DNA of 64,000 bases from Candidatus Methanomethylicia archaeon (GTDB lineage: Archaea > Thermoproteota > Methanomethylicia > Nezhaarchaeales > B40-G2): the NCBI GenBank assembly GCA_029259155.1, contig JAPDJI010000014.1:11316-75315 (forward strand), read 5' to 3'. The notes under the pieces are model-generated. The model was not told the origin of the DNA. It saw only the letters and a program-made list of their open reading frames with translations, and did no database searches. Shown piece by piece: positions 10,384 through 25,209 of the stretch. The translations under genes were made by a program, and so were the position numbers. Each line of letters opens with the position of its first letter. The first letter of the stretch is position 1.

Positions 10384-10932
10384 CTACTCGTCGTAAGCTC
10401 CTAGATCTTGCTGACATCTATGGTGGCAACCTTGCTCAAGCTCCAACCTTCTAAAAAGCTCTTTAAAATCCTCCTCAAGCCTACTTAAAGCAGCCCTAAC
10501 GGGCTTAGAAAGGCTCGCCTTAAAGGTATACGTTAAGCGTTTAGGCTGAATACCTATAAGCAGAAACTCTGAGTTGATGGATTCTTTAATGTAGGTGGCC
10601 AATAGTCTGAGAGAAGGTTTATGGGTATCAAGCGTTAAACCTGCAAGCTCGTCCTCACTATAGAGCTCTATGCTTCCAGGGGGTTTTCCTGCCTCTACAG
10701 CATCTACCACAACTACATGGCTTGGCTTAAACCTCCTAATACTTCCTGTATAGTTCTCAGGGTTCGATCCACAATCTAGAACCAATACCCAGCTTGGCTT
10801 AAACTTCCTAACTCTCCTAGCGAAGAGAGGACCTACGGCGTCGTCCCCCCTTAAAGGATTGCCAACTCCAAGCAACACTACCTTGCGTGCCCCTCGTAAC
10901 CTTCCGACTAACCTATCTAAGAGTGAGGCCAC
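10384..10932 (-). CDS. hycI: Hydrogenase maturation endopeptidase (HycI-like)
   Basis: GVGNPLRGDDAVG, PEN, VVVDA, THK, IGIQP. Confidence 0.92.
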   Translation of the reverse strand: MASLLDRLVGRLRGARKVVLLGVGNPLRGDDAVGPLFARRVRKFKPSWVLVLDCGSNPENYTGSIRRFKPSHVVVVDAVEAGKPPGSIELYSEDELAGLTLDTHKPSLRLLATYIKESINSEFLLIGIQPKRLTYTFKASLSKPVRAALSRLEEDFKELFRRLELEQGCHHRCQQDLGAYDE

Positions 10933-11045
10933 AGTGGCCTAGAACAAGAAACAAGCTTTAAGGGTTAACGCTTCAACAGTAGCTGAAGACGGGAAGGTAA
11001 GCTTAAAAATAGCTACTGATAGACATCTACCTGCGGTGGCTCAGC

Positions 11046-11411
11046 TTGCGTTTTCGGTTTGTGAGAGGTACGGTAGAGGAGGTCGACCTAGTTAACAGAA
11101 CTCTCACCATAATGGAGGACCTAAGGTGGGTCATGGAGACCTACATCCTACCAGAGAACTTGATCCACCTAATAGCGGAGAAAGGTAGGGACTGGATCGT
11201 AGATAATTTCATAGGTAAGAAGGTGAGAGCGCTAGCTGAGGGCATTGATACCGAGGAGAACGTGGGAGGTGTTCCTGTAAAGCGGGTGAAGTGGACCATT
11301 GTTAAGATGTTAGACCCTCCCATCTCCACAACCATACCTGTACCTGTTGCGCCTGAAACTACCCCCGTGAAACGGCGTAAGTCACGTGAAGAAGAGAGCA
11401 GCGAAGGATAA
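11046..11411 (+). CDS. Hypothetical protein, OB-fold-like N-terminus and Pro/basic/acidic tail
   Basis: GGTGG RBS with TTG start; beta-rich GTVEEVD..TLTI pattern. Confidence 0.55.
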   Translation: MRFRFVRGTVEEVDLVNRTLTIMEDLRWVMETYILPENLIHLIAEKGRDWIVDNFIGKKVRALAEGIDTEENVGGVPVKRVKWTIVKMLDPPISTTIPVPVAPETTPVKRRKSREEESSEG

Positions 11412-11426
11412 CCTGTAAAAATTTCT

Positions 11427-11843
11427 TTATCGTAGTTTTTCAATAGCTTTTACCACGGCGCTTAATATTGCTTCAGGTTTAGGTGGGCAGCCAGCTACAT
11501 AGACGTCTACAGGTATTACTTTATCTACAGGGCCAGCCACGGCGTAGCTTCCATCAAACACGTCTCCTGACACTGCGCAGTTACCTACCGCTACCACTAT
11601 TTTAGGGTCAGGTACCTGCTCATAGACGCGACGTAACCTATCTTTAATCTGTAACGTCACTACCCCTGTCACGAGTAGTATATCAGCATGTCTAGGCGTA
11701 CCCTTAAGGAGTGCACCAAACCTCTCAGCGTCGTAGAGGGGCGTTAGCGCAGCTACAACCTCTATATCACAGCCGTTACATCCACCACAGGGGAAGTGCA
11801 TGATCCATGGAGACTTCTTCCTAGCCCATGTAGAAAGATTCAT
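11427..11843 (-). CDS. Group 4 [NiFe]-hydrogenase small subunit (NuoB/HycG/EchC-like)
   Basis: CGGCNGCDIE, PRHAD, GNCA, GCPP. Confidence 0.95.
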   Translation of the reverse strand: MNLSTWARKKSPWIMHFPCGGCNGCDIEVVAALTPLYDAERFGALLKGTPRHADILLVTGVVTLQIKDRLRRVYEQVPDPKIVVAVGNCAVSGDVFDGSYAVAGPVDKVIPVDVYVAGCPPKPEAILSAVVKAIEKLR

Positions 11844-11849
11844 TTACGC

Positions 11850-12404
11850 TCACCCCATTTTTAACATAAACTTAGAGGCTTCCTTCAACGCTTCAGGTCT
11901 GGATCGGCATGGAGGACAAAGGGAGATGAGCTTACGGTACTCTTCGAGCGAAGCCCCCCGCTTATTTATCGACTCTTCCACTAGCTCAACTATCTTAGAT
12001 AGTTGCCTTGACGTAGTAAAGTAGCTGCCACAGGAAGCACAGGCAGCTAATTCAAGCTCTAATTTATCTTCAGCCTCTTCCTTGTTATAGGTCACTATCA
12101 CATACTCTCTAGATAGCTTGATGGCCTCCCAAGGACAGGTGTCTTCGCATCTACCGCAGAAGGCACAGTGTCCATGCCACACCCTTAAGACCCGCGTGGA
12201 GCCTTGATCCACCACGGTTATGGCTTTAGCCGGGCAAACTTGGCTGCATGCACCGCAACCTATGCATTTATCGCGGTCGTAGAGAGGCTTTCCTCTATAA
12301 CCTTCAGCCGGGGGTATTTCCTTATACGGGTAAGGCACTGTCGATGGCTTGAGGAAGCCTTTAAGGCTCTCCAACATGGTTCTTAGGTTTACCAAATTAA
12401 CCAC
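11850..12404 (-). CDS. Fe-S subunit (NuoI/HycF-like)
   Basis: CIGCGACSQVCP and CAFCGRCEDTCP, plus additional CxxC pairs. Confidence 0.92.
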   Translation of the reverse strand: MVNLVNLRTMLESLKGFLKPSTVPYPYKEIPPAEGYRGKPLYDRDKCIGCGACSQVCPAKAITVVDQGSTRVLRVWHGHCAFCGRCEDTCPWEAIKLSREYVIVTYNKEEAEDKLELELAACASCGSYFTTSRQLSKIVELVEESINKRGASLEEYRKLISLCPPCRSRPEALKEASKFMLKMG

Positions 12405-13324
12405 CCCGTGGAGGCTCTAATTAAATCTATCAAGGCTAGGGCTAAGCCCCAGGCCAAGAGGAATTTAAATGCTTGATCAACTCTTAGCCTAGTGCTCTGT
12501 GAATCTACGTAGGAGACTATGAACACTATTACGACGCATAACGCTAAGAAGCAGGCTACGTCTACGAACGGTATCCCTGTGAAACGCCCTCCCGCGAAGA
12601 ATAGGTCTACGGCTATGGCTGGAAGAACTATCCACCTGAACACATTGCCGAGCTCAAAGAGCCCTAGTAGGCTTCCTGAGTAATCTGTCAACGGTCCCGC
12701 TACGATCTCTACTTCGGCATCGGGTATATCAAAGGGTTTACGCCCAAGCTTGAGGACAAGAGCTATGAAGAAAGCTACCGCAGCGAACGGATAGCTAAAC
12801 AGGAAAGGTGTGCCGCTCTGAGCTGCTATGATGCTGGCCATACTTAACCCCCCGGCTGCCTTAACTAAAGCTATGGCAGAGACTACGAAAGGTATCTCCG
12901 AGGCGACTAGTAGGGTGAGCTCTCTGCTAGAACCTATAGCTCCGTAGGGGTTGCCTGAACTGGAGCCTGCTATGATAATGGATACGCCAGGGATGGCGAG
13001 CGCGATGAGCACTACCAGCACGTCTCCTGTTACGCTTAGAGGGGCAGCTACTCCTAGGGGAGTTAGTGCAAGTGCGGTTAGATATCCTGCTAAAGCTAGT
13101 AGGGGTGCTATTGTAAACCATGGTCTACTAGCAGCACTAGGCATTATGGTTTTCTTTGAAAATAGCTTAACGATGTCGGCGAGAGGCTGAATGATAGGTG
13201 GCCCTATCCTACACTGGAAGCGTGCCCTCAGTTTTCTGAAGAGCCAGTAGAATATCCAGCCAAAGATGAAGGCCAGAGCGAACTGGCAGGCTACTAACCC
13301 TGCTTGAAGTAGATAGTTGCTCAT
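12389..13324 (-). CDS. Membrane subunit (NuoH/HycD/EchB-like)
   Basis: RKLRARFQCRIGPP, RKPFDIPDAEVEIVAG. Confidence 0.93.
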   Translation of the reverse strand: MSNYLLQAGLVACQFALAFIFGWIFYWLFRKLRARFQCRIGPPIIQPLADIVKLFSKKTIMPSAASRPWFTIAPLLALAGYLTALALTPLGVAAPLSVTGDVLVVLIALAIPGVSIIIAGSSSGNPYGAIGSSRELTLLVASEIPFVVSAIALVKAAGGLSMASIIAAQSGTPFLFSYPFAAVAFFIALVLKLGRKPFDIPDAEVEIVAGPLTDYSGSLLGLFELGNVFRWIVLPAIAVDLFFAGGRFTGIPFVDVACFLALCVVIVFIVSYVDSQSTRLRVDQAFKFLLAWGLALALIDLIRASTGWLIW

Positions 13325-14484
13325 AACATCACCCTCCTCCTGGCTAAGTCCTCTAAGGTTACATGTTTCACGGACCCATTCTTCACATTAACCACTTCTA
13401 CCCTGTCGGTGCAGGCTATGCATGGATCGATGCTGGCGAAGATTATGGGGGCGTCGGCTATATTATAGCCTATTAACATGACTGGCACGCTATGGTTATT
13501 CGCTACGGAGGGCGTCCTTATCCTCACTCTTTCAGGTATGTTTGTGCCGTTGCTACGCATATAGTAGAAGAGCTCTCCTCTAGGTGCTTCAACCCGGCCG
13601 AAAACTTCCTTGCCCTTAACAGGCTCTTTAATCTCCTCCGCCATGATAGGGCCTTCAGGTATATCCTTAAGTATCTGCTTGATCATCTTAATGGACTCGA
13701 AGATCTCCATAAGCCTCACCAAGGTCTTAGCTAGCACGTCTCCTTGATCAAACACGGGTACAGACCATTCTAGTTTATCGTAGTTAGCGTATGGGTCATC
13801 TTTGCGCACATCTATGTCTATACCTGAGCCCCTCGCCGTAGGCCCTACGACACATAGTTTCTTGGCATCCTCTCTGGTTAAGACGCCTACCTCTGCTACC
13901 CTAGCCCTTATCATGCGGTCATTGACCACGGTCTCCTTTAATCTCTCAGCTGCCCGCTCAATCTCGACTAGCTGGGCTTCTACAAACTTAGCTAGCTTGG
14001 GGGTTAAGTCTCGCCTAACCCCTCCGATAGTGGGGTAGGCGTAGTTGACACGTTTCCCTGTCACGGCTTCGAGCACCCTCATCACTACCTCGCGGTCTCT
14101 CCACGCATGCATGAAGGCAGTATCAAACCCTATCAGGTGGAGGGCTACGCCGAACCATAGAAAGTGGCTATGAAGCCTCTCCAACTCTGCCACTAGGGCT
14201 CTAAGATACTTGGCTCTCTCAGGGGGCTCCACGTCTAGTAGGTCCTCGATGGTCTGAGTGCAGGCGGTAGCATGGGCGTCGCTGCAGATTCCACATACAC
14301 GTTCACATAGGAAGATTACTTGGTGAAAAGTTCTCCTGGAAGCTAGCCACTCTATACCTCGATGGAAGTAGCCTGTCTTAAGGTCAGCGCCTACGACGCG
14401 TTCACCTTCGACCTCCAGCCTTATGAAGAGGCTCTCCTTTAAGGCTGGGTGGAAGGGTCCTATAGGTATGCTACACGTGCTCAT
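13321..14484 (-). CDS. Group 4 [NiFe]-hydrogenase large subunit
   Basis: All four Ni-Fe Cys present: ERVCGICS (L1) and DPCIACTDR (L2), followed by a cleavable C-terminal extension. Confidence 0.96.
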   Translation of the reverse strand: MSTCSIPIGPFHPALKESLFIRLEVEGERVVGADLKTGYFHRGIEWLASRRTFHQVIFLCERVCGICSDAHATACTQTIEDLLDVEPPERAKYLRALVAELERLHSHFLWFGVALHLIGFDTAFMHAWRDREVVMRVLEAVTGKRVNYAYPTIGGVRRDLTPKLAKFVEAQLVEIERAAERLKETVVNDRMIRARVAEVGVLTREDAKKLCVVGPTARGSGIDIDVRKDDPYANYDKLEWSVPVFDQGDVLAKTLVRLMEIFESIKMIKQILKDIPEGPIMAEEIKEPVKGKEVFGRVEAPRGELFYYMRSNGTNIPERVRIRTPSVANNHSVPVMLIGYNIADAPIIFASIDPCIACTDRVEVVNVKNGSVKHVTLEDLARRRVML

Positions 14485-14488
14485 CTAG

Positions 14489-15370
14489 TCATCCCACCCT
14501 CTCAACGAGCTTGGTTAAAGGTATTCGGTGAAGGTCTAAGCCCACCTCCTCTGGCTTGTAGCCGAAGGAGAGGGCTAGGAGCTCAGATAGGTAAGCTACG
14601 GGTATGTTAAACTCGAGACTTGTCTTAGATTTAAGGTCGGCCTGCCCCACCTCGAACTGTAGATAGCAGGTGGGACACACCACAGCTATTAAGTCAGCAC
14701 CAGCTTCACTCACAGATTCAAGCTTCATCCTTAACGTCTCAGTTAAGGATAGCTCTTCATCGAAGCTTCTCTGAGGGAAGCCGCAGCAAAGTCTTTCAAG
14801 CTTATAGTCCACGACTTCAGCACCTATAGCCTTAACCAGCTCTTTAAAGGCCTCAGCTTTGAAGTACCAGTCTTCAGTCTTCTTTGACCTATAGAGGTGG
14901 CATCCTGGATGGACAGCCACCTTGATGCCTGTCAGCGGCTTAACCACAGCCTGCTTAATGCGATCTAATCCTTGCTCGTAGAGAGCTTCGGTGAGGTGTT
15001 TGACTTCCACGGTACCCTGATACTTCTTGCCTATCTTCGATAACTCCTTATTTACCTTCTCCTTAGCCTCAGGGTTTTCCTTTAAAAACTCGTTTGCCTC
15101 GAAGAGGGTTTCATAGCAACCGTTACACAAGGTCAGCACGGGAAGACCTAGGGCTTCAGCTATGGTAATGTTTCTGGCCGCCATCGTCAACCATAGCTCA
15201 CGGTCCAGCAGCCCTGTGTAGAAAGGCTCAGGACAACATGAAGTGCCCTCCATGTCTCGGTAGGGCACTCCAAGCTTTTCCAATACCTTGCGCGTAGAGG
15301 CTTCTATGTTAGAGAATCGGGTTTGAATCCAGCAGCTCCAAAACATGGCGTAGCCGGTCAACACAACCAC
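14489..15370 (-). CDS. hdrB: Heterodisulfide reductase subunit B-like protein
   Basis: Two CCG domains: WSC, CCPEP, CNGC, HPGCH, CCGFP, CPTCYLQFE. Confidence 0.9.
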   Translation of the reverse strand: MVVLTGYAMFWSCWIQTRFSNIEASTRKVLEKLGVPYRDMEGTSCCPEPFYTGLLDRELWLTMAARNITIAEALGLPVLTLCNGCYETLFEANEFLKENPEAKEKVNKELSKIGKKYQGTVEVKHLTEALYEQGLDRIKQAVVKPLTGIKVAVHPGCHLYRSKKTEDWYFKAEAFKELVKAIGAEVVDYKLERLCCGFPQRSFDEELSLTETLRMKLESVSEAGADLIAVVCPTCYLQFEVGQADLKSKTSLEFNIPVAYLSELLALSFGYKPEEVGLDLHRIPLTKLVERVG

Positions 15371-15371
15371 C

Positions 15372-16037
15372 TCAATACCTCAACTTCTTACGTCCCCAGT
15401 CGAACTTCACCTTCTCGTCGAACTTGAAGTCCTTCATCAACTTCTGCACTTCAGTTAACGACGCAGGGTCGACAGCAGTACATTTAACAGCTTCAGGAAG
15501 ACCTAGCTTAACGCGCTGCCTCTTAGCCGCGAAGGTCAAGGGGAAGCGCAGCCCCGTCGTCAACACCCCCTCTATCCCTGGCTTCTGAGTATCCGTCACA
15601 GGACCTTTCATAGGTCCTCTAAGCGGCTTAAGCTCCTCAGGCGCCTCAAAGGGTAGGGATATGTGACGTGGATCTGGATGTCCCTCAAACCGGATCCCAA
15701 ACATGTCTTGTACTTCCCTCTCTATCATCCCCGCCCCGGGTATGATGGGGGTGATGGAGTCTACCGTTGGCTTCTCCTTGGGCACCTTGAACTTGAGGTT
15801 CACGTAACTCCTCCCTATGGTCATATGGTAAATGAGCTCGAAATCTACTCCTAGGTCTACAGCTGAGATTGTGCAAAGCCTAGCGTTCTTCTCGTTGAAA
15901 AGCCACTCTACCATTTCCCTTAAGCAGTAGGGCTCTATGTATACTACGTACCTAGTCTCCCTGGCTTCTTGCACTTCGTGGACAACATCCTTAAACTTGT
16001 TCTTCAGCTCCTCAACAACCTCCTTCATCACCATCAC
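15372..16037 (-). CDS. NuoC/EchD-like subunit with HdrC-like C-terminal extension
   Basis: EREVQDMFGIRFEGHP NuoC motif; the last 64 aa resemble the HdrC C-terminus as recalled. Confidence 0.85.
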   Translation of the reverse strand: MMVMKEVVEELKNKFKDVVHEVQEARETRYVVYIEPYCLREMVEWLFNEKNARLCTISAVDLGVDFELIYHMTIGRSYVNLKFKVPKEKPTVDSITPIIPGAGMIEREVQDMFGIRFEGHPDPRHISLPFEAPEELKPLRGPMKGPVTDTQKPGIEGVLTTGLRFPLTFAAKRQRVKLGLPEAVKCTAVDPASLTEVQKLMKDFKFDEKVKFDWGRKKLRY

Positions 16038-18580
16038 CCCGCTAATGAACTAGCCAACCTCCAAGCCCAGTTGAATAAGGGGTCAGGAATCATGCCCAAA
16101 ACCACGCAGAGAGCAACTAAGACCAGGGCTATAGCGGCCAGACCTGTGGCTTCACGTATCTTCTCGGCTTCAGGTATGGGCTCACCCAAGAATGCTCCGC
16201 TGAATCCCTTGACCATAGCGGCCAGCAAGGTTACCGTGGAGAAAGCTACGATCAAGACTAAGTCCCACCTACCTGCCTCTGCTAAGGCTACGTAAAGCTG
16301 GTATTCGCTCCACCAAGTGTTGAAGGGAGGTATGCAGGCGAGGGCTAGGCTGCTAGCTATGAAGGCTAACGCGATCATGGGCATACGTCCAGCTAGCCCT
16401 TTGAAGCTATCCAGCCTTGTGGTTCCAGCTTTACTGGCCACCGCGGCTATGCAGTGCAGCATAGCTCATGAAGCTGGGATGATGTTAACCAAGTGGATCA
16501 ACCCGCCAGCTAGGCAGTGTACATAGCCTTCTACTCCTTTAGCTAGGTCGGCTGCACCTAGCTCCATGACCACGTCGCCGAGCTGAACCACGACCGCGGC
16601 TACGAAGAGTCTCTTTAGATCTCGGTGGTGAGCTGCCACCAGCGCACCGATGAGCATCATAGCTGTGCCCACGTAGAGGATAGGGGTTAGGAGACCCGTG
16701 GCTAAGGCTCCAGTTAAGGAGAGGAAGGCTATGCCTGCTAGGACGATTGCCCTAGTCTCTATGAACCTAGCTAACCCGAAGTAAGCTAGGTCAAATCCAC
16801 CACGCTTCATAAAGTTGTGGAGAGGTGCTATGAGTGAGGCAAAGTTAAGGTAGAAGGGGCCAGGCCCTACCTTGGCTTTCTCTAAGCTTAGGTAGGGCTC
16901 CTCGACCTCGCCCCCTGTGAAGGGCATGGCGGCGTAGGTGGTGACTACCATGGGTTTAAGGGAGGCATGGTATATAGCGTAGCCTACGAGCATAGAGATT
17001 AAGATGATGAGGGTGAGGCCCAGGGCTTCATAGAACCCTATCGGGGTAGCGAAGCCTAAGAGGAAGTAGCTGGGGACCCCAGCTCCCACTATTAAGGCCA
17101 CAGCCGGGTTGATTAGGGTATCGAGCAACAATCTTGGCGCCACGCCGAGGACCACGCAGAGAGCAGCTAGGATGACGATGGGTATCTGCATGGTGAGAGG
17201 TACTTCTTTAATCCCCTCCAACCTACTAGGCCTAACCCCGAAGAAGGCTGAGTGAAGCATCTTTAGCACGGAAGCGAGGGTTATTGCGCTGCCGAGGAGG
17301 GCTATTGCACAGTATAGCGCATACATTGCGCCTACAAGGCCCCCTTCAGCTAAGGCCCTCTGGATAGCGCCCTCATAGATGAGTAGCTTGCTAGCAAAGC
17401 CGTTAAGCGGCGGGATTCCTGCCAAGGCTAGGCCGCCGATGATCATGCAGGCAGCGGTCACAGGCATGTTACGTGCTAAGCCACCCATCTCGCTCAGCTT
17501 CTTGGTGCCAGTTACGTAGATTAGGCAGCCAGCACCGAGGAAGAGGAGGCCTTTGAAGATGGCGTGGTTAAAGAAGTGGAAGAGGCCTCCAGCTATGCCC
17601 ACTGCGGTACCTATTCCTAAGCCGAGGAACATGTAGCCTATCTGAGCGGCGGTGTGGTAGGCTAGGAGCCTTTTGACGTCGTCTTGTAGCCAAGCCCCTG
17701 CAGAACATATGATTAAGGTGAAGGCCCCCACCGTGGCCATGGCAATATCCATGGGAGTCTTAAGCGGTGTTAAAGCAGCTAGCTGAGCAGATCTAGCCAT
17801 TAAGTAAACCCCGGCCTTAACCATGGCTGCTGCGTGGAGGAAGGCGGTCACGGCAGAGGGAGCTACCGTAGCGTCTGGGAGCCAGTTATGGACAGGGAAT
17901 TGCACCGACTTAGCCATGGAGGCGACGAGGAAGAGAGGCATCGCTGCGGCTAAAGCCAGTAGGGGGGCAGCTCCGTTTAAGCTGGGTAGGTCTAGGCTAG
18001 TCTTCCCCTGCGCCAGTAGGACTAAGATGCCCAAGATGATGCCTGCGCCGCAAGCATGCGTCATTATCAAGGCCTTCATGGAAGCCCTGGAGCTCTCAAC
18101 CTTACGTATGTAGAACCCTATGAGGCCATAGGAACATAGCCCCACAAGCTCCCAGAATACGAAGAGTAATAACAGGTTCCCCGCTGAGAAGAGACCTATC
18201 ATGGATCCTTGAAAGAGCAGCATCAGTGCAAAGTACCTGGTGTGCCCCTCAGCTTCATGAGCCATGTCGGCTACCGAGTATAGGATCGCCATGAAGCCGA
18301 AGAAGCCGGACATCACTACAAACAACATCGATAAGGCGTCGCCGTAGAGCAGAAGGCCTATGTTTATTCCCTGAGCTCTAAGAAAACCAGCTTCTATGGC
18401 TATTGGTCCTAGCTGTAAGACTGAGGCTGTGGCCCATAGCGAGGCTAGGAAGGTTAGAAGCGTGAAGAGGGTTGCAAGGTAGGCCTTAACTTTATAGGAA
18501 GCTTTATGGAGTATCGCAACTAAGAAGCTTCCCGCTAAAGGTAGGGTGACCGAGAGTATGAATGCCAGCTGAGCATTCAT
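16034..18580 (-). CDS. Antiporter-like subunit (NuoL/MrpA/HycC-like) interrupted by an in-frame TGA at 16466-16468
   Basis: FVFWE, AKSVQFP, WLPDA, AAMVKAG, PPLNGF. The 704-aa and 142-aa ORFs are in the same frame (TGA GCT ATG). Confidence 0.88.
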
Positions 18581-19041
18581 GGTCTTACCCCACTAATCTT
18601 AGATCTTAACTCTAAGGCTATCTCTCTTGGGTAAGCCCTTAAGGCTCCCGAGGAGCAGACCTTTACGCATTCAGGGTCGCCATCACATAGATCACACTTA
18701 ACCGACACTCTAAGCTCTTCATTGAAAGCGGGGACTGATAGTGGGCATGCATAGTTGCAGGTTTTACACCCTATACATTTCACTTGATTTATCCTAACTA
18801 TGCCTGCCTCATCCTTCCAAATAGCTTCACTTAGACAGGCAGCCATGCAGAGAGGTTCTTCGCAGTGTAGGCAGTAAATAGCTTGGAACGTGCCTGTAGC
18901 TGGGTCGAAGACGTGTTTTATGTATGACTTAGCATACCCTGCTTCCCCATAGTGCTTATAGCTACAGGCAACCTCGCAAGCCCTACATCCAGTGCATTTG
19001 GATGGGTCAAACACCAGCTTGAGCTCCACCACCTTCCTCAT
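18577..19041 (-). CDS. 4x[4Fe-4S] electron-transfer subunit (HycB/CooF/DmsB-like)
   Basis: CTGCRACEVAC, CLHCEEPLCMAAC, CIGCKTCNYACP, KCDLCDGDPECVKVC. Confidence 0.92.
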   Translation of the reverse strand: MRKVVELKLVFDPSKCTGCRACEVACSYKHYGEAGYAKSYIKHVFDPATGTFQAIYCLHCEEPLCMAACLSEAIWKDEAGIVRINQVKCIGCKTCNYACPLSVPAFNEELRVSVKCDLCDGDPECVKVCSSGALRAYPREIALELRSKISGVRP

Positions 19042-19066
19042 CCTCCCCGGGAGCTGCCTTATCGTT

Positions 19067-19091
19067 CGAAATTCGCTTTAAAGCAGTTTCG
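19067..19091 (-). promoter_or_regulatory. TATA-like box inside an imperfect palindrome upstream of the hydrogenase operon
   Basis: cgaaattcgcTTTAAAgcagtttcg, about 35-40 bp upstream of ATG 19041. Confidence 0.4.
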
Positions 19092-19159
19092 CTCCTGTCC
19101 ACATCGATTTTATCTAGAGCAATAGCTCTCAGGGTTACAGTTCTCATTAAACTTGAGAA

Positions 19160-19182
19160 TAAAAAACGGTGGAGCAAAAAAG
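19160..19182 (-). terminator. Oligo-U terminator after the flavoprotein gene
   Basis: Two A6 tracts on + (U6 on -) just downstream of the stop at 19192. Confidence 0.55.
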
Positions 19183-19191
19183 CGGAGTGGC

Positions 19192-20532
19192 TTAAGCTTT
19201 CTTTAAGGCAGCCTCCGCTGCTAGCGTTATGGCGCTCCAAGTATCGGCTAAAGGAGGCGTATAGCAGGTATCAGCTTTAGCTAGCTCATAAGCAGTCATA
19301 CCCTTCTGGATAGCTAACGACAGTGCGTCTACGCGAGGCGCTACACCTTCACCGCCTAGGATTTGAGCGCCGATGAGCTTCATGGAAGCCTTCTCGAAGA
19401 TCAGCTTCACCCTTATGTCCTTAGCTCCAGGATAGTACTCCGCCCTTGTCTTCCAAGGTATAGAGCCGACAACAACCTCCATGCCTGCTTGCCTGGCTTG
19501 CCACTCAGTCAGGCCTGTGAAGCCCACTTCAACGTCGAATAGCTTTGAAACCGCTGAACCTAATACCCCTGGGAAGGTAGCATAGCCGCCTGCAGCGTTT
19601 ATGCCTGCCACCTTACCCTGCTTCACTGCCGTGGTTCCTAGCTGACAAAGTACGGGCTGCATGGTGACTAAGTGTACGCTCTCCACGCAGTCACCTGCTG
19701 CATAGATGTCTTCTACCGTAGTCTTCATCCTGGCGTCTACCTTAATCCCTCCAGTTACACCTAGCTTACATCCAGCCTTGACCGCTAGGTCGGTGTTGGC
19801 TCTGACGCCTATCGCCATGACTACAAGGTCTGCGTCAACCTGTTCGCCTCCAGCAGCTACTGCCTTAACGTGGTCATCGCCGAGTATCTCATCTGCCTTC
19901 GTGTTTAACATCAACTTGACGCCGTGAGCAGATATCTTGGTTTGAAGCAGCTTAGCCATGTCCTCATCTAGGATAGGTCTAAGAACTTGGTGTAGAGCTT
20001 CAATGACAGTTACCTTTACTCCTCTCTTCACCAACCCTTCAGCGGCTTCCAGCCCTACTAAGCCGGCGCCTATGACCACGGCGCTTTTAGCCTTCAAGGC
20101 TTCTTCAAGAATAGCTGAGGCATCAGGTATTGTTCTAAGCGGGTACACACCTTTCTTATCGTAGCCCTTAATACGGGGGACCACTGCTCTGGCTCCTGTG
20201 GTTAAGATTAAGGAGTCGTACTCGAAGGTTTCCTCCTTTCCATCAGGCCCTACTGCTTTAACTACCTTAGCGCTATGGTCTATCTCTGTGACGGTGGTCT
20301 TGAGATGTAAGTCTATCTTCATCATTTTGTAGAACTCTGACTTATAGATGATGATATGGTCAAACCCTTCGATGTCGCCGCCTATCACGAAAGGTAGGGC
20401 ACAGCGTGAGTAGGCTGGTTTATCCTCAGCATCGATAACTTTTACCTCAACTTCTCTGCTGGTCCGTCTAGCATTGAGCGCAGCATCTAATCCAGCAGCT
20501 CCACCTCCGATCACAACTACTCGTTTAGCCAT
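19192..20532 (-). CDS. CoA-disulfide reductase/NADH oxidase-family flavoprotein
   Basis: GGGAAG, single redox Cys YSRCALP, GAGLVG, AAGDC, C-terminal CYTPP. Confidence 0.9.
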   Translation of the reverse strand: MAKRVVVIGGGAAGLDAALNARRTSREVEVKVIDAEDKPAYSRCALPFVIGGDIEGFDHIIIYKSEFYKMMKIDLHLKTTVTEIDHSAKVVKAVGPDGKEETFEYDSLILTTGARAVVPRIKGYDKKGVYPLRTIPDASAILEEALKAKSAVVIGAGLVGLEAAEGLVKRGVKVTVIEALHQVLRPILDEDMAKLLQTKISAHGVKLMLNTKADEILGDDHVKAVAAGGEQVDADLVVMAIGVRANTDLAVKAGCKLGVTGGIKVDARMKTTVEDIYAAGDCVESVHLVTMQPVLCQLGTTAVKQGKVAGINAAGGYATFPGVLGSAVSKLFDVEVGFTGLTEWQARQAGMEVVVGSIPWKTRAEYYPGAKDIRVKLIFEKASMKLIGAQILGGEGVAPRVDALSLAIQKGMTAYELAKADTCYTPPLADTWSAITLAAEAALKKA

Positions 20533-20556
20533 CTTCCTCAGCCTTTCTTAGAGAGA

Positions 20557-20964
20557 CTACATAATGGTCTTAAGCCACCCAGCCGCCTTATCGGCGGTCA
20601 TTAAATTCTTTAGCTCTTCATCGAGGTTGCTAGCCTCTATTACCACCAGCCAGCCCTTACCGTAGGGGTCCTCGTTAAGTACTGAAGGGTTGCTTTGAAC
20701 CTCAGCGTTAACCTCCTTAATGGTTCCGGATATCGGTGATATTAGGTCTACGGCTGCTTTTAACGACTCGGCGCTGCCGAAGGCGTCGCCAACGTTCACG
20801 GTAGAGCCGGGATCTAGCAGGCTTATGTTTATGACCTGTTTCAGGTTCTTCTGTGCATAGTCTGTTATGCCAACTCTAGCCTTGCCGTCCTCCACCTTAA
20901 CCCACACGTGGTTCTCTGAGTAATACAGTCCTTCGGGAACCTCGTATTCTCCCACCGTAACCAA
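20557..20964 (-). CDS. gcvH: Glycine cleavage H-protein / lipoyl carrier
   Basis: HVWV, GITDYAQ, lipoyl-Lys in ESLKAA, NEDPYGKGW. Confidence 0.95.
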   Translation of the reverse strand: MVTVGEYEVPEGLYYSENHVWVKVEDGKARVGITDYAQKNLKQVINISLLDPGSTVNVGDAFGSAESLKAAVDLISPISGTIKEVNAEVQSNPSVLNEDPYGKGWLVVIEASNLDEELKNLMTADKAAGWLKTIM

Positions 20965-21224: not shown

Positions 21225-22346
21225 TTGATGTCGGAGGAGCTAAGAAGAGAGCTATCCTCCTGTACAGATTGTAGGATGTGTGACAATGTCTGTCCCTTCT
21301 ACCTCGCTACGGGAGACGAGTCCATAGGTGCCTGGAACAAGGTTAAAGTTGCTCAAGCTGTGCTAGGGGGCGATAGGCAGGTCAGCGATGTATTGAGAGA
21401 ACTGTACCTATGTACCTGCTGCGGAACCTGTGAGCTTGCCTGCCCCTTTAATATCCCGATATCTGAGGCAGTTAGAGCTTTAAGGAGCTTAGCTGTCAAG
21501 GAGCGTTGCGCTCCGGAACCTGTCGTTAAGCTGTGTGAAGGGATAATCAACCAGGGATCGATGACTGGTGAGGGGAAGGAGTTCTGGAGGAGCTGGATCC
21601 CCACTGAGGTGAATTTCCCTAGTGAAGCTGAGTACCTCTACCTTGTAGGTTGCATGATCCCCTTTAGGCTCCGTGATGTAGGCAGGGCTACGGTGGATAT
21701 CTTGAAGGCAGCTGGCGTGGACTTCACAATTTTAGGTGAGGATGAGAGGTGTTGCGGCCTCCTCCTCGTGGATCACGGCTTCCTAGAAGAAGCTAAGACG
21801 GTCGCGGAGAGAAACCTATCGAGCGTAGAAGGGAGGAAGCCTAGCGTCGTTCTGATGGCGTGCGCCGCCTGCTACTATACGTACAAGCATGTTTACCAGA
21901 GGATCTATAGGAAACCTGAGTTTGAGGTGATACACGTAGCGGAGGCCTTAGCCGACCTCATCGATCATGGGAGGATAAGCTTCAAGAAGCGGATTGATGA
22001 GAAGGTGGCCTTCCTTGACCCCTGCCACTTCGTGAAGGTCTCTGGTAAATACGAGATTCCCAGGAAGGTGATCGAGAACATTCCCGGGCTGAAGTTAATT
22101 GAGTTCCCGAGAAGCAGGGCTGAAGCGCTTTGTTGCGGCGCACCCGGAGGTATTAGGCTGGTGTCTAGGGATGTAGCGTTCTCCGCGGCTGGAATGATAG
22201 TTAAGGAGGCCCTCAAGCTGGAGGTTTCAAGGATCGTAACCTCCTGTCCGCTCTGCATGTATCAGCTTTCATGGGCTGCTGAAAAGCTGGGGGCGGGGAG
22301 GTTAAAGGTAACTGACCTTCCCTTGTTAGTGAAGGAAGCTCTCTGA
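21225..22346 (+). CDS. Fe-S oxidoreductase, HdrD/GlpC-like
   Basis: Two ferredoxin motifs (CTDCRMCDNVCP, CTCCGTCELACP) plus two CCG domains. Confidence 0.88.
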   Translation: MMSEELRRELSSCTDCRMCDNVCPFYLATGDESIGAWNKVKVAQAVLGGDRQVSDVLRELYLCTCCGTCELACPFNIPISEAVRALRSLAVKERCAPEPVVKLCEGIINQGSMTGEGKEFWRSWIPTEVNFPSEAEYLYLVGCMIPFRLRDVGRATVDILKAAGVDFTILGEDERCCGLLLVDHGFLEEAKTVAERNLSSVEGRKPSVVLMACAACYYTYKHVYQRIYRKPEFEVIHVAEALADLIDHGRISFKKRIDEKVAFLDPCHFVKVSGKYEIPRKVIENIPGLKLIEFPRSRAEALCCGAPGGIRLVSRDVAFSAAGMIVKEALKLEVSRIVTSCPLCMYQLSWAAEKLGAGRLKVTDLPLLVKEAL

Positions 22347-22415
22347 ACTTTGATCTCCACGCCCCGTTCTCATGGCTTATCACGCATGTAAAGCTTTAAT
22401 GAAGAATTAATTAGG

Positions 22416-23450
22416 ATGGTAGACGTGAGACTGGTCGACGAGATGAGGCACTTGAAGCCTAGGTTAGTCAGGGTTTCCTACGGCTCAGCGGTAGTCTTAG
22501 GCTTAGCTAGGGGATGGCTTAAGACTAAACCGACCACCAGCTATCTCTTAACTTACTTAGAAGAGCGCTGCCTAGCTAACTGCGGTTTCTGTCCTCAAGC
22601 TAAAGATAGTAATGCTAGCCTAGACCTCCTATCCAGGGTGGAGTGGCCTCCTTACCCTGCTCAAGAAGTAGTGGAGAGGGCCGTGAACGCTTTAAGGCGA
22701 GGCTTATTGAAGAGAGCCTGCGTCCAAGTTGTTAACAGGCCTGAGGGCTTAAATCAGGCTTTATGGCTCGTGGAACATGTAAGCCTAGGAGGAGAATTAC
22801 CTGTATCAGTTTCTATACCTCCGTTAGGGCGTAGTGGGCTTGAAGCCTTTAAACGGACAGGGGCAGGCAGAGTCTCCATAGCGTTAGATGCTGCTAATCG
22901 CAGGGTCTTCGACGAGGTTAAAGGACTTAATGCTGGTGGGCCCTACACTTGGGATGGACACTGGAATGCGCTTAGAAAAGCCCTCGAGGTTTTTGGCCCT
23001 GGAAACGTGACGACCCACCTTATTGTGGGTCTTGGGGAAACTGAGAGAGACCTAGCACGCGTCATCGATAAGCTATTATCGATAAAGGTACTCCCAGCCC
23101 TCTTCGCCTTCACTCCTATACCTGGTACTAGGCTTGAAGCGTTACCTCAACCTGAAGTAGCAAGCTATCGCCGCATTCAGCTTGTGAGACACTTACTGGT
23201 AAAGGGTATAGTTTCTCTTAAGGACCTGGAGTTTAACCATGTAGGGAGGCTTGTTCGCATAAAAGCTTCCAGCGAGGAGGTAATGAGAGAGATCGAGAGC
23301 GGTGAACCTTTCGAGACTTCAGGGTGTCCTGGATGTAATAGACCTTTTTACAACGAGAAACCTGGAGGGCCTCTCTATAATTACCCAAGACCTTTAAGCA
23401 GAAAAGAGGTGGAGGAGGCCTTAAGCCTGCTGAGAGACGTGGTAGCCTGA
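22416..23450 (+). CDS. lipS2: Archaeal-type lipoyl synthase subunit LipS2 (radical SAM)
   Basis: CLANCGFC and TSGCPGCNRP, matching the TxGCPxC(N/D)RP motif of Thermococcus LipS2. Confidence 0.85.
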   Translation: MVDVRLVDEMRHLKPRLVRVSYGSAVVLGLARGWLKTKPTTSYLLTYLEERCLANCGFCPQAKDSNASLDLLSRVEWPPYPAQEVVERAVNALRRGLLKRACVQVVNRPEGLNQALWLVEHVSLGGELPVSVSIPPLGRSGLEAFKRTGAGRVSIALDAANRRVFDEVKGLNAGGPYTWDGHWNALRKALEVFGPGNVTTHLIVGLGETERDLARVIDKLLSIKVLPALFAFTPIPGTRLEALPQPEVASYRRIQLVRHLLVKGIVSLKDLEFNHVGRLVRIKASSEEVMREIESGEPFETSGCPGCNRPFYNEKPGGPLYNYPRPLSRKEVEEALSLLRDVVA

Positions 23451-23559
23451 GAAGGAAATATTAAGGAAGTTGAAGGCTTATCAGCGACCTATATTGGGCG
23501 CTAAGGTCGTAGAGGAGTAAAAGATTATCTAATAGAGCTCTTTCTTTTGGGGGGCTGAA

Positions 23560-24009
23560 ATGAGGGTAGACAAGATGCAACCTGAATTAACTTTCCATGT
23601 ACAGGTAGAGTGGGATGGCTCTACTGGAGGTGAGGCTAAACTCTCAGTACAGCCTCCCTTAAGGTTTGATACCCCAAGGGACTTCGGAGGCTCTGAAGCT
23701 GGCTATTGCCCAGAAGAGCTTTTCTTAGCGTCGTTGGCTGCTTGCTTAACCACAACCTTTGCTTATCTAAGGCCTAAGCTAGGCTTAGAGGCTTCCTCGC
23801 TGAGGATAAATGCCACTGACCGCGTCGAGTTTAGAGACGGAGGCTACATGGTGACCGAGGCCTGGATGAAGGTGAAGCTGGAAGTTAGGAAAGGTCAGGC
23901 TGAGTTAGCGAGACAATGCGTGGAACTTGCTGCTGAGTACTGCCATGTAACTAGGTCAATAAGGAGATGTATACCTGTTCACTTAGAAGTAGAGGTGGTA
24001 GAGGTTTAA
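23560..24009 (+). CDS. OsmC/Ohr family peroxiredoxin
   Basis: PEELFLASLAAC and a second Cys in YCHV. Confidence 0.88.
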   Translation: MRVDKMQPELTFHVQVEWDGSTGGEAKLSVQPPLRFDTPRDFGGSEAGYCPEELFLASLAACLTTTFAYLRPKLGLEASSLRINATDRVEFRDGGYMVTEAWMKVKLEVRKGQAELARQCVELAAEYCHVTRSIRRCIPVHLEVEVVEV

Positions 24010-24133
24010 TGAATAGGTCCATCCCCAACATTTACGAATTTTCTTTCAAGTCCTCTGCGGCGCATTGATTAATCTAAAAGGCTTAATTAGATCTATGAGA
24101 GGATGAAATAATCCACCTAAGAGGTGGTGAAGG

Positions 24134-24910
24134 CTGACTGAGGAGTGGAGGCTTCTGAAGACAGGTAGTGGTGATGCCTACTGGAACATGGCTGTAGACG
24201 AAGCTATCTTAACAGCGAGAACTGAAGGCAAAGTGCCGAATACCTTGCGCCTATACACTTGGAAGCCCTCTGCAGTATCAATAGGCTTTTTCCAGAGCTT
24301 ACACCACGAAGTGGACTTGGAGGAATGTCGTAATCTAGGAGTAGACGTAGTTAGACGCATAACTGGTGGAGGGGCAGTGTTTCATGACAGTGACGGTGAA
24401 GTGACCTATAGCGTAGTGGTGGCGGAGGCTGACTTGAAACGTATAACTCCTCACTCCACTATACAGGAATCCTATGAAGCTCTATGTAAAGGTTTGCTGG
24501 AAGGGTTGAAAGAGCTAGCTATAGCAGCTGAGTTTAAACCAATAAACGATATACTCGTTGCTGGACGTAAGATCTCAGGCAGTGCTCAGACTAGGCGTAG
24601 GGGCATTATTCTTCAGCATGGCACTTTACTGCTTAAAAGCGATATAAGAACCATGTTCAGGGTGTTGAAGGTCTCCAAGGAAAAAATAAGCGACAAGCTG
24701 ATCAAGGAGGTGGAGGAGAGAGTTACCAATATATATCGTGAAACTGGCCGTGAACTAGCTGTCGAGGAGGTTATAGGTGCTCTCGTCAAAGGTTTTCAAC
24801 GCGCATTAGGGGTCAAATTAAAGGAGGGCGAGCTGTCCCCATATGAGCTTAGCTTAGCTGAAGAGTTTAAGCATAGATATGCCTCAAAGGAGTGGCTTGA
24901 GCTTAGGTGA
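24134..24910 (+). CDS. lplA: Lipoate-protein ligase catalytic subunit (LplA-N)
   Basis: RRITGGGAVFHD, KISGSAQ, QHGT. The conserved WRLL...DAYWNMAVDEA N-terminus extends to an in-frame CTG at 24134. Confidence 0.9.
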   Translation: MTEEWRLLKTGSGDAYWNMAVDEAILTARTEGKVPNTLRLYTWKPSAVSIGFFQSLHHEVDLEECRNLGVDVVRRITGGGAVFHDSDGEVTYSVVVAEADLKRITPHSTIQESYEALCKGLLEGLKELAIAAEFKPINDILVAGRKISGSAQTRRRGIILQHGTLLLKSDIRTMFRVLKVSKEKISDKLIKEVEERVTNIYRETGRELAVEEVIGALVKGFQRALGVKLKEGELSPYELSLAEEFKHRYASKEWLELR

Positions 24911-25209
24911 ACGAGTTGAGGGTCGAGGCTGAACATAAGGTAGCTGGGGGTAAACTGGTTAGAGTAGAGCTTGAAGTAGAGGAAGGAGTGATTAAGAGGA
25001 TCAAGATAACCGGTGACTTCTTTCTTTACCCAGAGGAAGCCGTTTTTAAGCTCGAGGAGGCTCTAAAAGGAGTTCGTGCTAGCAGTGAACTTGAAAAGCT
25101 CATAGAGCATGAACTATCTAAGCAGGGAGCTGAGCTCTTAGGGGCGTCTCCGGCAGACATAGCTACGGCTATTAATAAGGCTTTAACCTCCATTAATCCT
25201 TGGCAATGA
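24907..25209 (+). CDS. lplB: Lipoate-protein ligase accessory subunit (LplA-C/LplB)
   Basis: KVAGGKLVRV, ITGDFFLYPEE; GTGA overlap with lplA. Confidence 0.88.
   Translation: MNELRVEAEHKVAGGKLVRVELEVEEGVIKRIKITGDFFLYPEEAVFKLEEALKGVRASSELEKLIEHELSKQGAELLGASPADIATAINKALTSINPWQ

Follow-up and report, generated by a model that had tools for sequence, protein, structure and literature searches.

A NuoC-like subunit of a group 4 hydrogenase carries an HdrC-type C-terminal arm that probably holds HdrB

We describe a protein of 221 amino acids (aa) encoded on the minus strand of a 64,000-nucleotide (nt) stretch of DNA, here called the window, from a Candidatus Methanomethylicia archaeon (GenBank assembly GCA_029259155.1, contig JAPDJI010000014.1, positions 11,316 to 75,315 of the forward strand). 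Its gene, nuoC-arm, sits among the genes for NuoB, NuoD, NuoH and NuoI-like core subunits of a group 4 hydrogenase module. The protein is probably a scaffold subunit of the NuoC kind whose C-terminal arm, derived from HdrC, holds the disulfide reductase subunit HdrB on the hydrogenase. We infer this binding from homology, from the strict co-occurrence of the arm with hdrB and from a complex prediction.

Metagenomic data have led to the proposal that HdrB-linked membrane hydrogenases, which are present in archaea with and without methanogenesis, tie H2 directly to ion pumping and the reduction of disulfides. To our knowledge none of them (Ehd, Ehe, Drh, Ehg) has been purified. The covalent fusion described here is gene-fusion evidence for HdrB sitting on the hydrogenase, and it names the subunit that carries HdrB.

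Homology of the C-terminal arm to HdrC

Residues 32-141 of the protein matched Pfam family PF00329 (Complex1_30kDa) with 89.3 bits against a cut-off of 22.5. In an AlphaFold2 model of the single chain, residues 1-120 of the NuoC domain had predicted local distance difference test (pLDDT) values of 82-95. A Foldseek search with this model matched the N-domain of HycE (7z0s_E, 2e-10), 9g83_C (1e-9), 6u8y_K (4.1e-8) and MbhK (6cfw_K, 7.9e-8), as well as NuoC/NDUFS3 of complex I. Only NuoC-type folds were found among the 50 matches listed for the whole single-chain model, and this search was uninformative on the arm. The arm was modelled with helices at residues 152-161, 169-177, 191-203 and 206-209.

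The whole protein matched four HdrC chains of the PDB, with residues 142-219 aligned on chain residues 105-182. When the last 82 aa (the tail) were searched as a single sequence against PDB chains, 8rvu_c was matched with an E value of 4.8e-4 (tail residues 18-78 on 122-182 of 185) and 5odc_C with 5.2e-3; the best non-HdrC match had an E value of 1.1. The tail also matched TIGR03290, the NCBIfam model for HdrC, at 5.6e-6, covering positions 82-143 of the 144 in the model. With a profile built from 17 full-length homologues the E value against 8rvu_c was 5.6e-10. A profile of 31 tails matched four methanogen HdrC sequences at 9.2e-14 (8rvu_c), 1.1e-13, 9e-13 (5odc_C) and 8.1e-12 (9sfi_E), in an alignment that was gapless and colinear over chain residues 107-184, as far as the final residues of HdrC. 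The fifth HdrC in line, 7bkb_C, scored 0.014, and no non-HdrC match fell below 0.4. By these sequence comparisons the tail is confirmed as a homologue of the cluster-free extreme C-terminus of methanogen HdrC.

An earlier note on this DNA, made from the letters alone, had drawn attention to a 64-aa tail at 15372-15566 (stop codon included), which reads exactly as quoted there. The HdrC pattern that it gave, TG...P..R..GL.E..T..P..L.EVQK..K..FD...W, is visible in the alignment of the tail with PDB chains, and the similarity that it expected from a profile search was found in the 31-tail profile. Its description of the tail as HdrC-like stands; the extent does not, as the homologous stretch is longer than the last 64 residues and runs from about residue 144 to 218 (window 15384-15608). 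There are just three cysteines in the protein (C38, C55 and C186), so the two CX2CX2CX3C motifs of HdrC are absent, as the note had said, and no Fer4 Pfam match was found in it.

The mean column identity of the tail alignment was 57%. Four residues were invariant in the 31 aligned tails, namely R36, E57, R81 and Y82 in the numbering of the 82-aa tail, and L41 was nearly invariant. The last two form a C-terminal Arg-Tyr (15375-15380, minus strand; consensus KKLRY), which lies beyond the HdrC-aligned part and outside the HdrB contacts predicted below, and may touch another subunit. Many Bathyarchaeia arms (loci L020-L064) have a conserved single cysteine (...GCV.P...) where the window protein has TTGLRFP, at about residues 160-163. 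A recent origin of the arm from the canonical HdrC resident in the genome (locus L002) found no support (hhalign probability 2%, E value 0.023).

Co-occurrence of the arm and hdrB

Eighty related loci were fetched from species-representative genomes, and the window proteins were mapped onto their open reading frames (ORFs). These loci are kin and not independent trials, and the counts do not amount to a statistical test. The tail was borne by 61/80 NuoC genes, and 19/80 were tail-less. In 60/61 arm-bearing loci hdrB followed nuoC directly, within a few bases, and was followed by nuoD; in the remaining one (L061) the contig stops 36 nt past the gene. None of the tail-less genes (0/19) was followed by hdrB, nuoD being directly next in 19/19, and an HdrB homologue was present anywhere in the flanks of 1/19. 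The tail and hdrB co-occur strictly, with no exception among the 80 kin loci. The arm sequence was present in 61/61 arm-bearing loci and the reading frame intact in 60/61, the arm of L057 being split by a frameshift.

The same arrangement is found in the window. The nuoC-arm stop codon occupies 15372-15374 and the earliest hdrB start is a GTG at 15370, which leaves the gap of 1 nt given in the earlier note. The hdrB gene is thereby inserted between nuoC-arm and the nuoD-like gene, inside the group 4 hydrogenase cluster.

The carriers of the arm were mostly Bathyarchaeia; Nezhaarchaeales, Ca. Baldrarchaeum, an Asgard metagenome-assembled genome (MAG) and one contig binned as a bacterium were also among them. 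For the arm-bearing loci, identities fall to about 23-30%. Arm-bearing NuoC proteins and a free arm were listed under bacterial names (L060, P0015, P0017 and P0297; a Krumholzibacteriaceae MAG and '[Eubacterium] cellulosolvens'). These are close to Bathyarchaeia sequences and could reflect mis-binning, contamination or transfer. In public records the arm-bearing proteins are labelled simply "NADH-quinone oxidoreductase subunit C" or "Ni,Fe-hydrogenase III component G".

In 40/61 arm-bearing loci (L019-L065 and others, among them most of the Bathyarchaeia versions) the gene order was hycB, nuoC-arm, hdrB, nuoD and a nuoB-nuoI fusion, and flanks of up to 8 kilobases showed no homologue of NuoH or NuoL. 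Judged by gene content, each of these would be a module of five proteins for H2:disulfide conversion, apparently soluble and assembled from parts of a group 4 hydrogenase. As the arm-bearing form is widespread (61 loci, mostly Bathyarchaeia, 40 of them apparently soluble), it bears on the hydrogen and thiol/disulfide metabolism of abundant sediment archaea.

Predicted complex of HdrB and the arm

HdrB and the tail, each with an alignment of 31 sequences, were submitted to complex prediction in three runs with three controls. The interface score ipSAE was 0.85, 0.84 and 0.85, and 0.00 in the best of the 3 controls, a result that likeness to solved HdrBC complexes may explain. The partner pLDDT was 86 in each run (mark at least 85), and at least 98% of the contacts were common to the runs. 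The pass mark was attained by 58/80 solved complexes and 2/110 mismatched pairs, rates that are rough here, where our own alignments were used. Predicted contacts on HdrB fell on residues 11-66, within the first CCG domain and including C13 and C45, and on residues 109-115, 201-205 and 275-280. On the arm, the predicted interface took in R36 and E57, both invariant, and L41, which is nearly so. The tail-HdrB interface foreseen in the earlier note was thus predicted, and its proposal that the fusion attaches HdrB to the hydrogenase is supported by the HdrC homology, the co-occurrence (60/61 versus 0/19) and the complex prediction, the last showing likeness rather than binding.

The HdrB protein itself scored 292 bits against TIGR03288, under the cut-off of 345.15, yet the match was full-length (model positions 2-289 of 290). 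HdrB chains of the PDB were matched over the full length with E values from 1e-75 to 1e-67 (9sfi_C 1.3e-75, 5odc_B 3.2e-73). Ten CCG cysteines were invariant in 31 HdrB homologues (C13, C45, C46, C82, C85, C157, C195, C196, C232 and C235). H158, also invariant, and E91, conserved in at least 90%, align with H154 and E87 of 9sfi_C. Residues with these numbers are assigned to the proton path of HdrB from M. maripaludis, the possible source of 9sfi_C, in a legend of PMC13518236. Judged by its residues, HdrB looks catalytically intact.

Free arms and the NuoC-end motif

The tail profile was also searched against 1.84 billion proteins, as representatives at 50% identity, and gave 107 matches. Pfam scanning of 28/107 identified NuoC plus arm (~220 aa), Fer4_8 plus arm (ordinary HdrC), and proteins of 83-100 aa without a Pfam domain. 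Some matches were to long proteins (1402-3059 aa), each hit in 7-13 stretches, and were set aside as spurious; two that were scanned gave scattered, non-significant Pfam matches typical of low complexity. The 83-100-aa proteins consist of the arm only, are typically ~92 aa long, and were found in Ca. Methanomethylicota and Ca. Culexmicrobium thermophilum. Their IMG name is "heterodisulfide reductase subunit C", so the "HdrC" of Ehd/Ehe-type clusters is without iron-sulfur (Fe-S) ligands.

Among 401 sampled genomes of the phylum, 62 had an arm match, and the 30 best loci were examined. Of these 25 had free arms and 5 fused arms. The hdrB gene was next in 29/30, the other one lying at a contig edge; for the free arms alone, hdrB was directly downstream in 24/25, and the other locus reaches the contig edge. 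A HycB-like gene lay directly upstream of the arm gene in 27/30. Since hdrB stands beside both free and fused arms, the association of the arm with HdrB does not depend on its attachment to NuoC.

In 19/19 tail-less NuoC proteins the motif xP[LY][RL]x, usually as YPLRK, was located at the C-terminus or close to it. The fused proteins retain PLR directly before the arm, with P138 invariant in 17 homologues. In free arms, [YFH]P[LW][RKE][RK] was found after the first 6-17 residues in 11/11 aligned sequences. NuoC was fused to NuoD in 13/13 extended free-arm loci, and the motif pattern was found at the NuoC-NuoD junction in 0/13 of these fusions. Two of the fusions (L119 and L130) nevertheless have LPLRMP at the junction, so the absence of the motif from such fusions is not absolute. 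The earlier note had raised whether described Ehd clusters share the fusion. Ehd/Ehe-type clusters do not: they have a separate ~92-aa arm directly upstream of hdrB, and NuoC fused to NuoD. On a comparison that rests on a five-residue motif, there may be two equivalent designs, in which the arm is either carried on the free C-terminus of NuoC or, when NuoC is fused to NuoD, supplied as a separate adaptor with its own NuoC-end motif.

Proposed role of the arm

The 221-aa protein would be the NuoC-type scaffold of an HdrB-associated (Ehd-like) group 4 [NiFe] hydrogenase. Its chain would run past the PLR motif, where NuoC normally ends, through a flexible Pro/Gly linker into a helical arm of ~75 residues that wraps the N-terminal CCG domain of HdrB. 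This contact would tether the disulfide-reducing HdrB to the peripheral arm of the hydrogenase. Electrons may then, as the earlier note had proposed, reach HdrB through the clusters of the NuoI-like and/or HycB-like subunits, in place of the HdrC ferredoxin domain, and the NuoH- and NuoL-like subunits could, by their families, couple the reaction to ion translocation. In Ehd/Ehe-type clusters the same task would fall to a free ~92-aa adaptor whose two ends are YPLRK and the HdrB arm.

Several points weigh against this reading. In the single-chain AlphaFold2 model the linker (residues 125-144) had pLDDT below 50, and the arm alone was moderately confident, at 55-77. A low-confidence linker with a moderate arm model fits a partner-dependent arm, and by itself is no evidence for one. 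The equivalog cut-off of TIGR03290 (160) was failed by the whole protein (23.8 bits) and by the tail (26.4 bits). With this score and without the ferredoxin domain the protein is not an HdrC, but a NuoC with the cluster-free end of HdrC. No similarity was detected between the arm and the resident HdrC of locus L002, which makes the arm methanogen-type and not universal to HdrC-like proteins. Because HdrBC complexes have already been solved, the pass in the complex prediction may come from the predictor having learnt them, and shows likeness to that interface and not binding. In the crystal structures of Wagner et al. 2017 the C-terminal part of HdrC reportedly binds HdrB. The literature as available has the heterodisulfide pocket formed jointly by HdrB and HdrC, and says nothing more specific. 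The arm lacks both the ferredoxin domain of HdrC and the stretch that holds T79, Y81, Y84, E94 and K98, residues that the available text of PMC13518236 places near the active site and the proton path. It follows from this double absence that the route by which electrons enter, and the substrate pocket in part, must be built differently from HdrBC. Neither proposed electron wire is specific to HdrB-linked clusters. HycB-like genes were found in 60/61 arm-bearing loci and also in 13/19 arm-less loci, and the CxxC...CxxC extension of NuoI, which occurs in arm-less clusters too, was dropped as a candidate.

Alternative explanations

The arm could be mainly a catalytic accessory, completing the substrate crevice of HdrB or shielding its proximal non-cubane cluster, with HdrB held by, e.g., the HycB-like or NuoI-like subunit. 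The predicted contacts on HdrB residues 11-66 do include the cluster ligands C13 and C45, the pocket is made by HdrB and HdrC together in the literature available, and free arm-only proteins exist that have no covalent tie to the hydrogenase. However, the pocket and proton-path residues 79-98 of HdrC lie upstream of the retained part, which aligns from about 105-110, and the NuoC-end YPLRK of the free arms points to a second, hydrogenase-side contact. We consider a mainly accessory role unlikely; it is compatible with tethering, and both may hold. It is very unlikely that the similarity to HdrC is convergent and the tail a NuoC-type extension for neighbours such as NuoD or NuoI. Other NuoC proteins do have unrelated C-terminal extensions, e.g. 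Dehalococcoidia forms, and the invariant C-terminal RY (consensus LRY) is outside the predicted HdrB contacts, but profile E values of 1e-12 to 1e-13 were obtained with HdrC chains exclusively, in a colinear, gapless alignment over 75 residues, and the tail is never found without hdrB.

Two further explanations deny the fusion a function or its existence. Unfused arrangements in relatives show that fusion or fission did occur, and the tail might be the now functionless remnant of a chance event that removed the stop codon separating nuoC from a small hdrC-like gene. A neutral remnant is highly improbable given that the fused frame is intact in 60/61 loci and the arm sequence present in 61/61, across Bathyarchaeia, Nezhaarchaeales, Baldrarchaeum and an Asgard MAG, with R36, E57, R81 and Y82 invariant, 57% mean column identity and hdrB always next. 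Faulty assembly or gene calling in this metagenome-derived genome, as the source of the fusion, has next to no probability. The suspicious in-frame TGA in the adjoining nuoL-like gene does make local errors possible, but the same 218-228-aa architecture recurs in independent assemblies (17 full-length homologues, 61 loci and 120 listed proteins, each of these 120 carrying PF00329), and NuoC plus arm was met again among the 50%-identity representatives of the 1.84 billion proteins. As independent loci share the fusion, an artefact is already excluded. A NuoC scaffold whose HdrC-derived arm tethers HdrB remains the reading that we prefer.

Gene cluster and genome context

The cluster comprises twelve ORFs in eleven genes on the minus strand, from 10384 to 20964. 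In order of transcription these are gcvH, CoA-disulfide-reductase-like, HycB-like, NuoL/Mrp-like, nuoC-arm, hdrB, NuoD-like, nuoH-like, nuoI/hycF-like, nuoB-like and HycI. Coordinates of these genes, of the parts of the NuoC-arm protein and of the divergent neighbours are collected in Table 1.

Table 1. Features of the NuoC-arm protein, the hydrogenase cluster and its divergent neighbours in the window
Feature	Position	Strand	Description	Evidence
nuoC-arm gene	15372..16037	-	221 aa; NuoC-like scaffold subunit fused to HdrC-derived C-terminal arm	PF00329 plus HdrC matches on residues 142-219
NuoC / Complex1_30kDa domain	15615..16037	-	residues 1-141	Pfam match, AlphaFold2 model, Foldseek
Pro/Gly-rich linker	15588..15641	-	residues ~133-150; contains PLR motif	alignment of 17 homologues, low pLDDT
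HdrC-type arm	15375..15608	-	residues 144-221; four short helices, without Fe-S ligands, ends RY
hdrB	14489..15370	-	293 aa, two CCG domains; predicted catalytic disulfide reductase subunit	Pfam CCG x2
[NiFe] hydrogenase large subunit (NuoD-like)	13321..14484	-	N-terminal CGIC, C-terminal CIAC	Pfam Complex1_49kDa, NiFeSe_Hases
NuoH-like membrane subunit	12389..13324	-		Pfam NADHdh 229.7 bits
NuoI/HycF-like 2x[4Fe-4S] subunit	11850..12404	-	two extra CxxC pairs	Pfam
NuoB-like hydrogenase small subunit	11427..11843	-		Pfam Oxidored_q6
HycI-type hydrogenase maturation protease	10384..10932	-		Pfam HycI
NuoL/Mrp antiporter-like subunit	16034..18580	-	two ORFs (704 + 142 aa), in-frame TGA at 16466-16468
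HycB-like poly-[4Fe-4S] ferredoxin subunit	18577..19041	-	candidate electron wire	Pfam Fer4_11 and others
CoA-disulfide reductase / NADH oxidase-like flavoprotein	19192..20532	-		Pfam Pyr_redox_2; TIGR03385 389.7 bits, under cut-off 578.8
GcvH (lipoyl carrier)	20557..20964	-	cluster head	Pfam GCV_H; TIGR00527 124.9 bits, over cut-off 115.85
HdrD-like protein	21225-22346	+	HdrC-type Fer4_8 plus two CCG domains; divergent from hydrogenase cluster
LipS2-family lipoyl synthase	22416-23450	+		NCBIfam 327.7 bits vs cut-off 270
OsmC-like protein	23560-24009	+
Lipoate-protein ligase large subunit	24188-24910	+
100-aa ORF	24907-25209	+

The claim that the operon has no separate hdrC holds for the minus-strand operon, but the divergent HdrD-like neighbour does have an HdrC-type Fer4_8 domain. 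HdrA is not among the products of the cluster, which therefore does not encode a module for flavin-based bifurcation. The NuoL/Mrp-like gene has an ATG two codons after its in-frame TGA. Four relatives (L010, L011, L012 and L030) have one uninterrupted NuoL-like ORF (866-868 aa), in which the TGA column is occupied by Leu or Gly. The TGA may stem from a sequencing error or reflect a true nonsense mutation or split; a recoded codon is less likely.

No McrA was found in the genome, which is 94% complete, so CoM-S-S-CoB is an unlikely substrate and another disulfide is likely. The genome has four full-length HdrB paralogues in all. The three outside the cluster (G000, at C10:45846-47153, C5:58041-59304 and C9:56139-56999) include two that adjoin HdrC-like ferredoxin genes. 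An ordinary HdrC-HdrB pair is present elsewhere in the genome, and its HdrC is unlike the arm.

The divergent plus-strand genes at 21225-25209 and gcvH form a lipoylation and disulfide set, which we take to resemble the LbpA context of sulfur-oxidising Hdr-like systems. GcvH homologues were found in 11/61 arm-bearing loci, 0/19 arm-less loci and 10/30 of the best arm loci of the phylum sample. By analogy, the flanking lipoylation genes add to the idea that GcvH could be a disulfide carrier. As a speculation to which we give rather little weight, the HdrC arm might be an autonomous, portable HdrB-docking module, plugged into group 4 hydrogenases either by fusion to NuoC or in the form of a separate two-ended YPLRK adaptor. 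The complex in the window might then be an ion-translocating H2:lipoyl-protein oxidoreductase that uses a lipoylated GcvH-type carrier, not CoM-S-S-CoB, and feeds or drains the CoA-disulfide-reductase-like flavoprotein.

Comparison with known systems

The HdrB-linked group 4 hydrogenase is an already published enzyme type. The available text of Kohtz et al. 2022 (PMC9723716) lists as HdrB-interacting group 4 hydrogenases Ehd of Methanomethylicia, named by Borrel et al. 2019, Ehe of Culexarchaeia, which occurs with GcvH, Drh of Methanocellales, Ehg of Nezhaarchaeia and an "Ehd-like" group of Bathyarchaeia. The same text suggests GcvH as a possible disulfide carrier for Ehe and speaks of "HdrBC" in such complexes. 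The available part of a 2025 paper (PMC12700198) mentions that Methanonezhaarchaeia have non-methanogenic relatives with an Ehd-like complex. The arm-NuoC fusion and the cluster-free HdrC are new here; no description of either was found in the searchable literature, with supplements and Borrel et al. 2019 lying outside that search. Because the "HdrC" of these complexes is without Fe-S clusters, published electron-flow cartoons with an HdrBC unit need another wire.

The HdrC of soluble HdrABC (5ODC, 8RVU, 9SFI, 7BKB) is homologous to the arm over its last ~75 residues, colinear to the C-terminus, and has a partner HdrB of the same methanogen type as that in the window. Where it has an N-terminal ferredoxin domain with two [4Fe-4S] clusters, however, the window protein has a NuoC domain. 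The arm-only HdrC of Ehd/Ehe belongs to the same arm family, likewise has no Fe-S ligands, and has hdrB directly downstream and usually a HycB-like gene directly upstream; these clusters also have the same hydrogenase subunit set, often with GcvH adjacent. They differ in having a free arm of 83-100 aa that starts with YPLRK and a fused NuoC-NuoD, whereas in the window the arm is on a free-standing NuoC and nuoD is separate, after hdrB.

NuoC/Nqo5/NDUFS3, MbhK of MBH and the N-domain of HycE share the fold and family of residues 1-141, a cofactor-free scaffold beside a NuoD-like subunit. None of the solved homologues matched bears an HdrC-type arm, and the arm-less relatives end near a PLR-type motif. 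Drh, the disulfide-reducing hydrogenase of Methanocellales (cited to Lyu and Lu 2015), is in the available text of PMC6046458 and PMC9723716 likewise a group 4-type cluster with hdrB, without an antiporter subunit. On that partial description Drh resembles the 40/61 arm-bearing loci with a nuoB-nuoI fusion and no NuoH/NuoL in the fetched flanks. HdrD/TfrB/GlpC-type proteins are another covalent joining of HdrC-derived and HdrB-derived parts. Unlike the window protein, in which the arm only is fused to a hydrogenase subunit, they keep the ferredoxin domain, fused to CCG domains.

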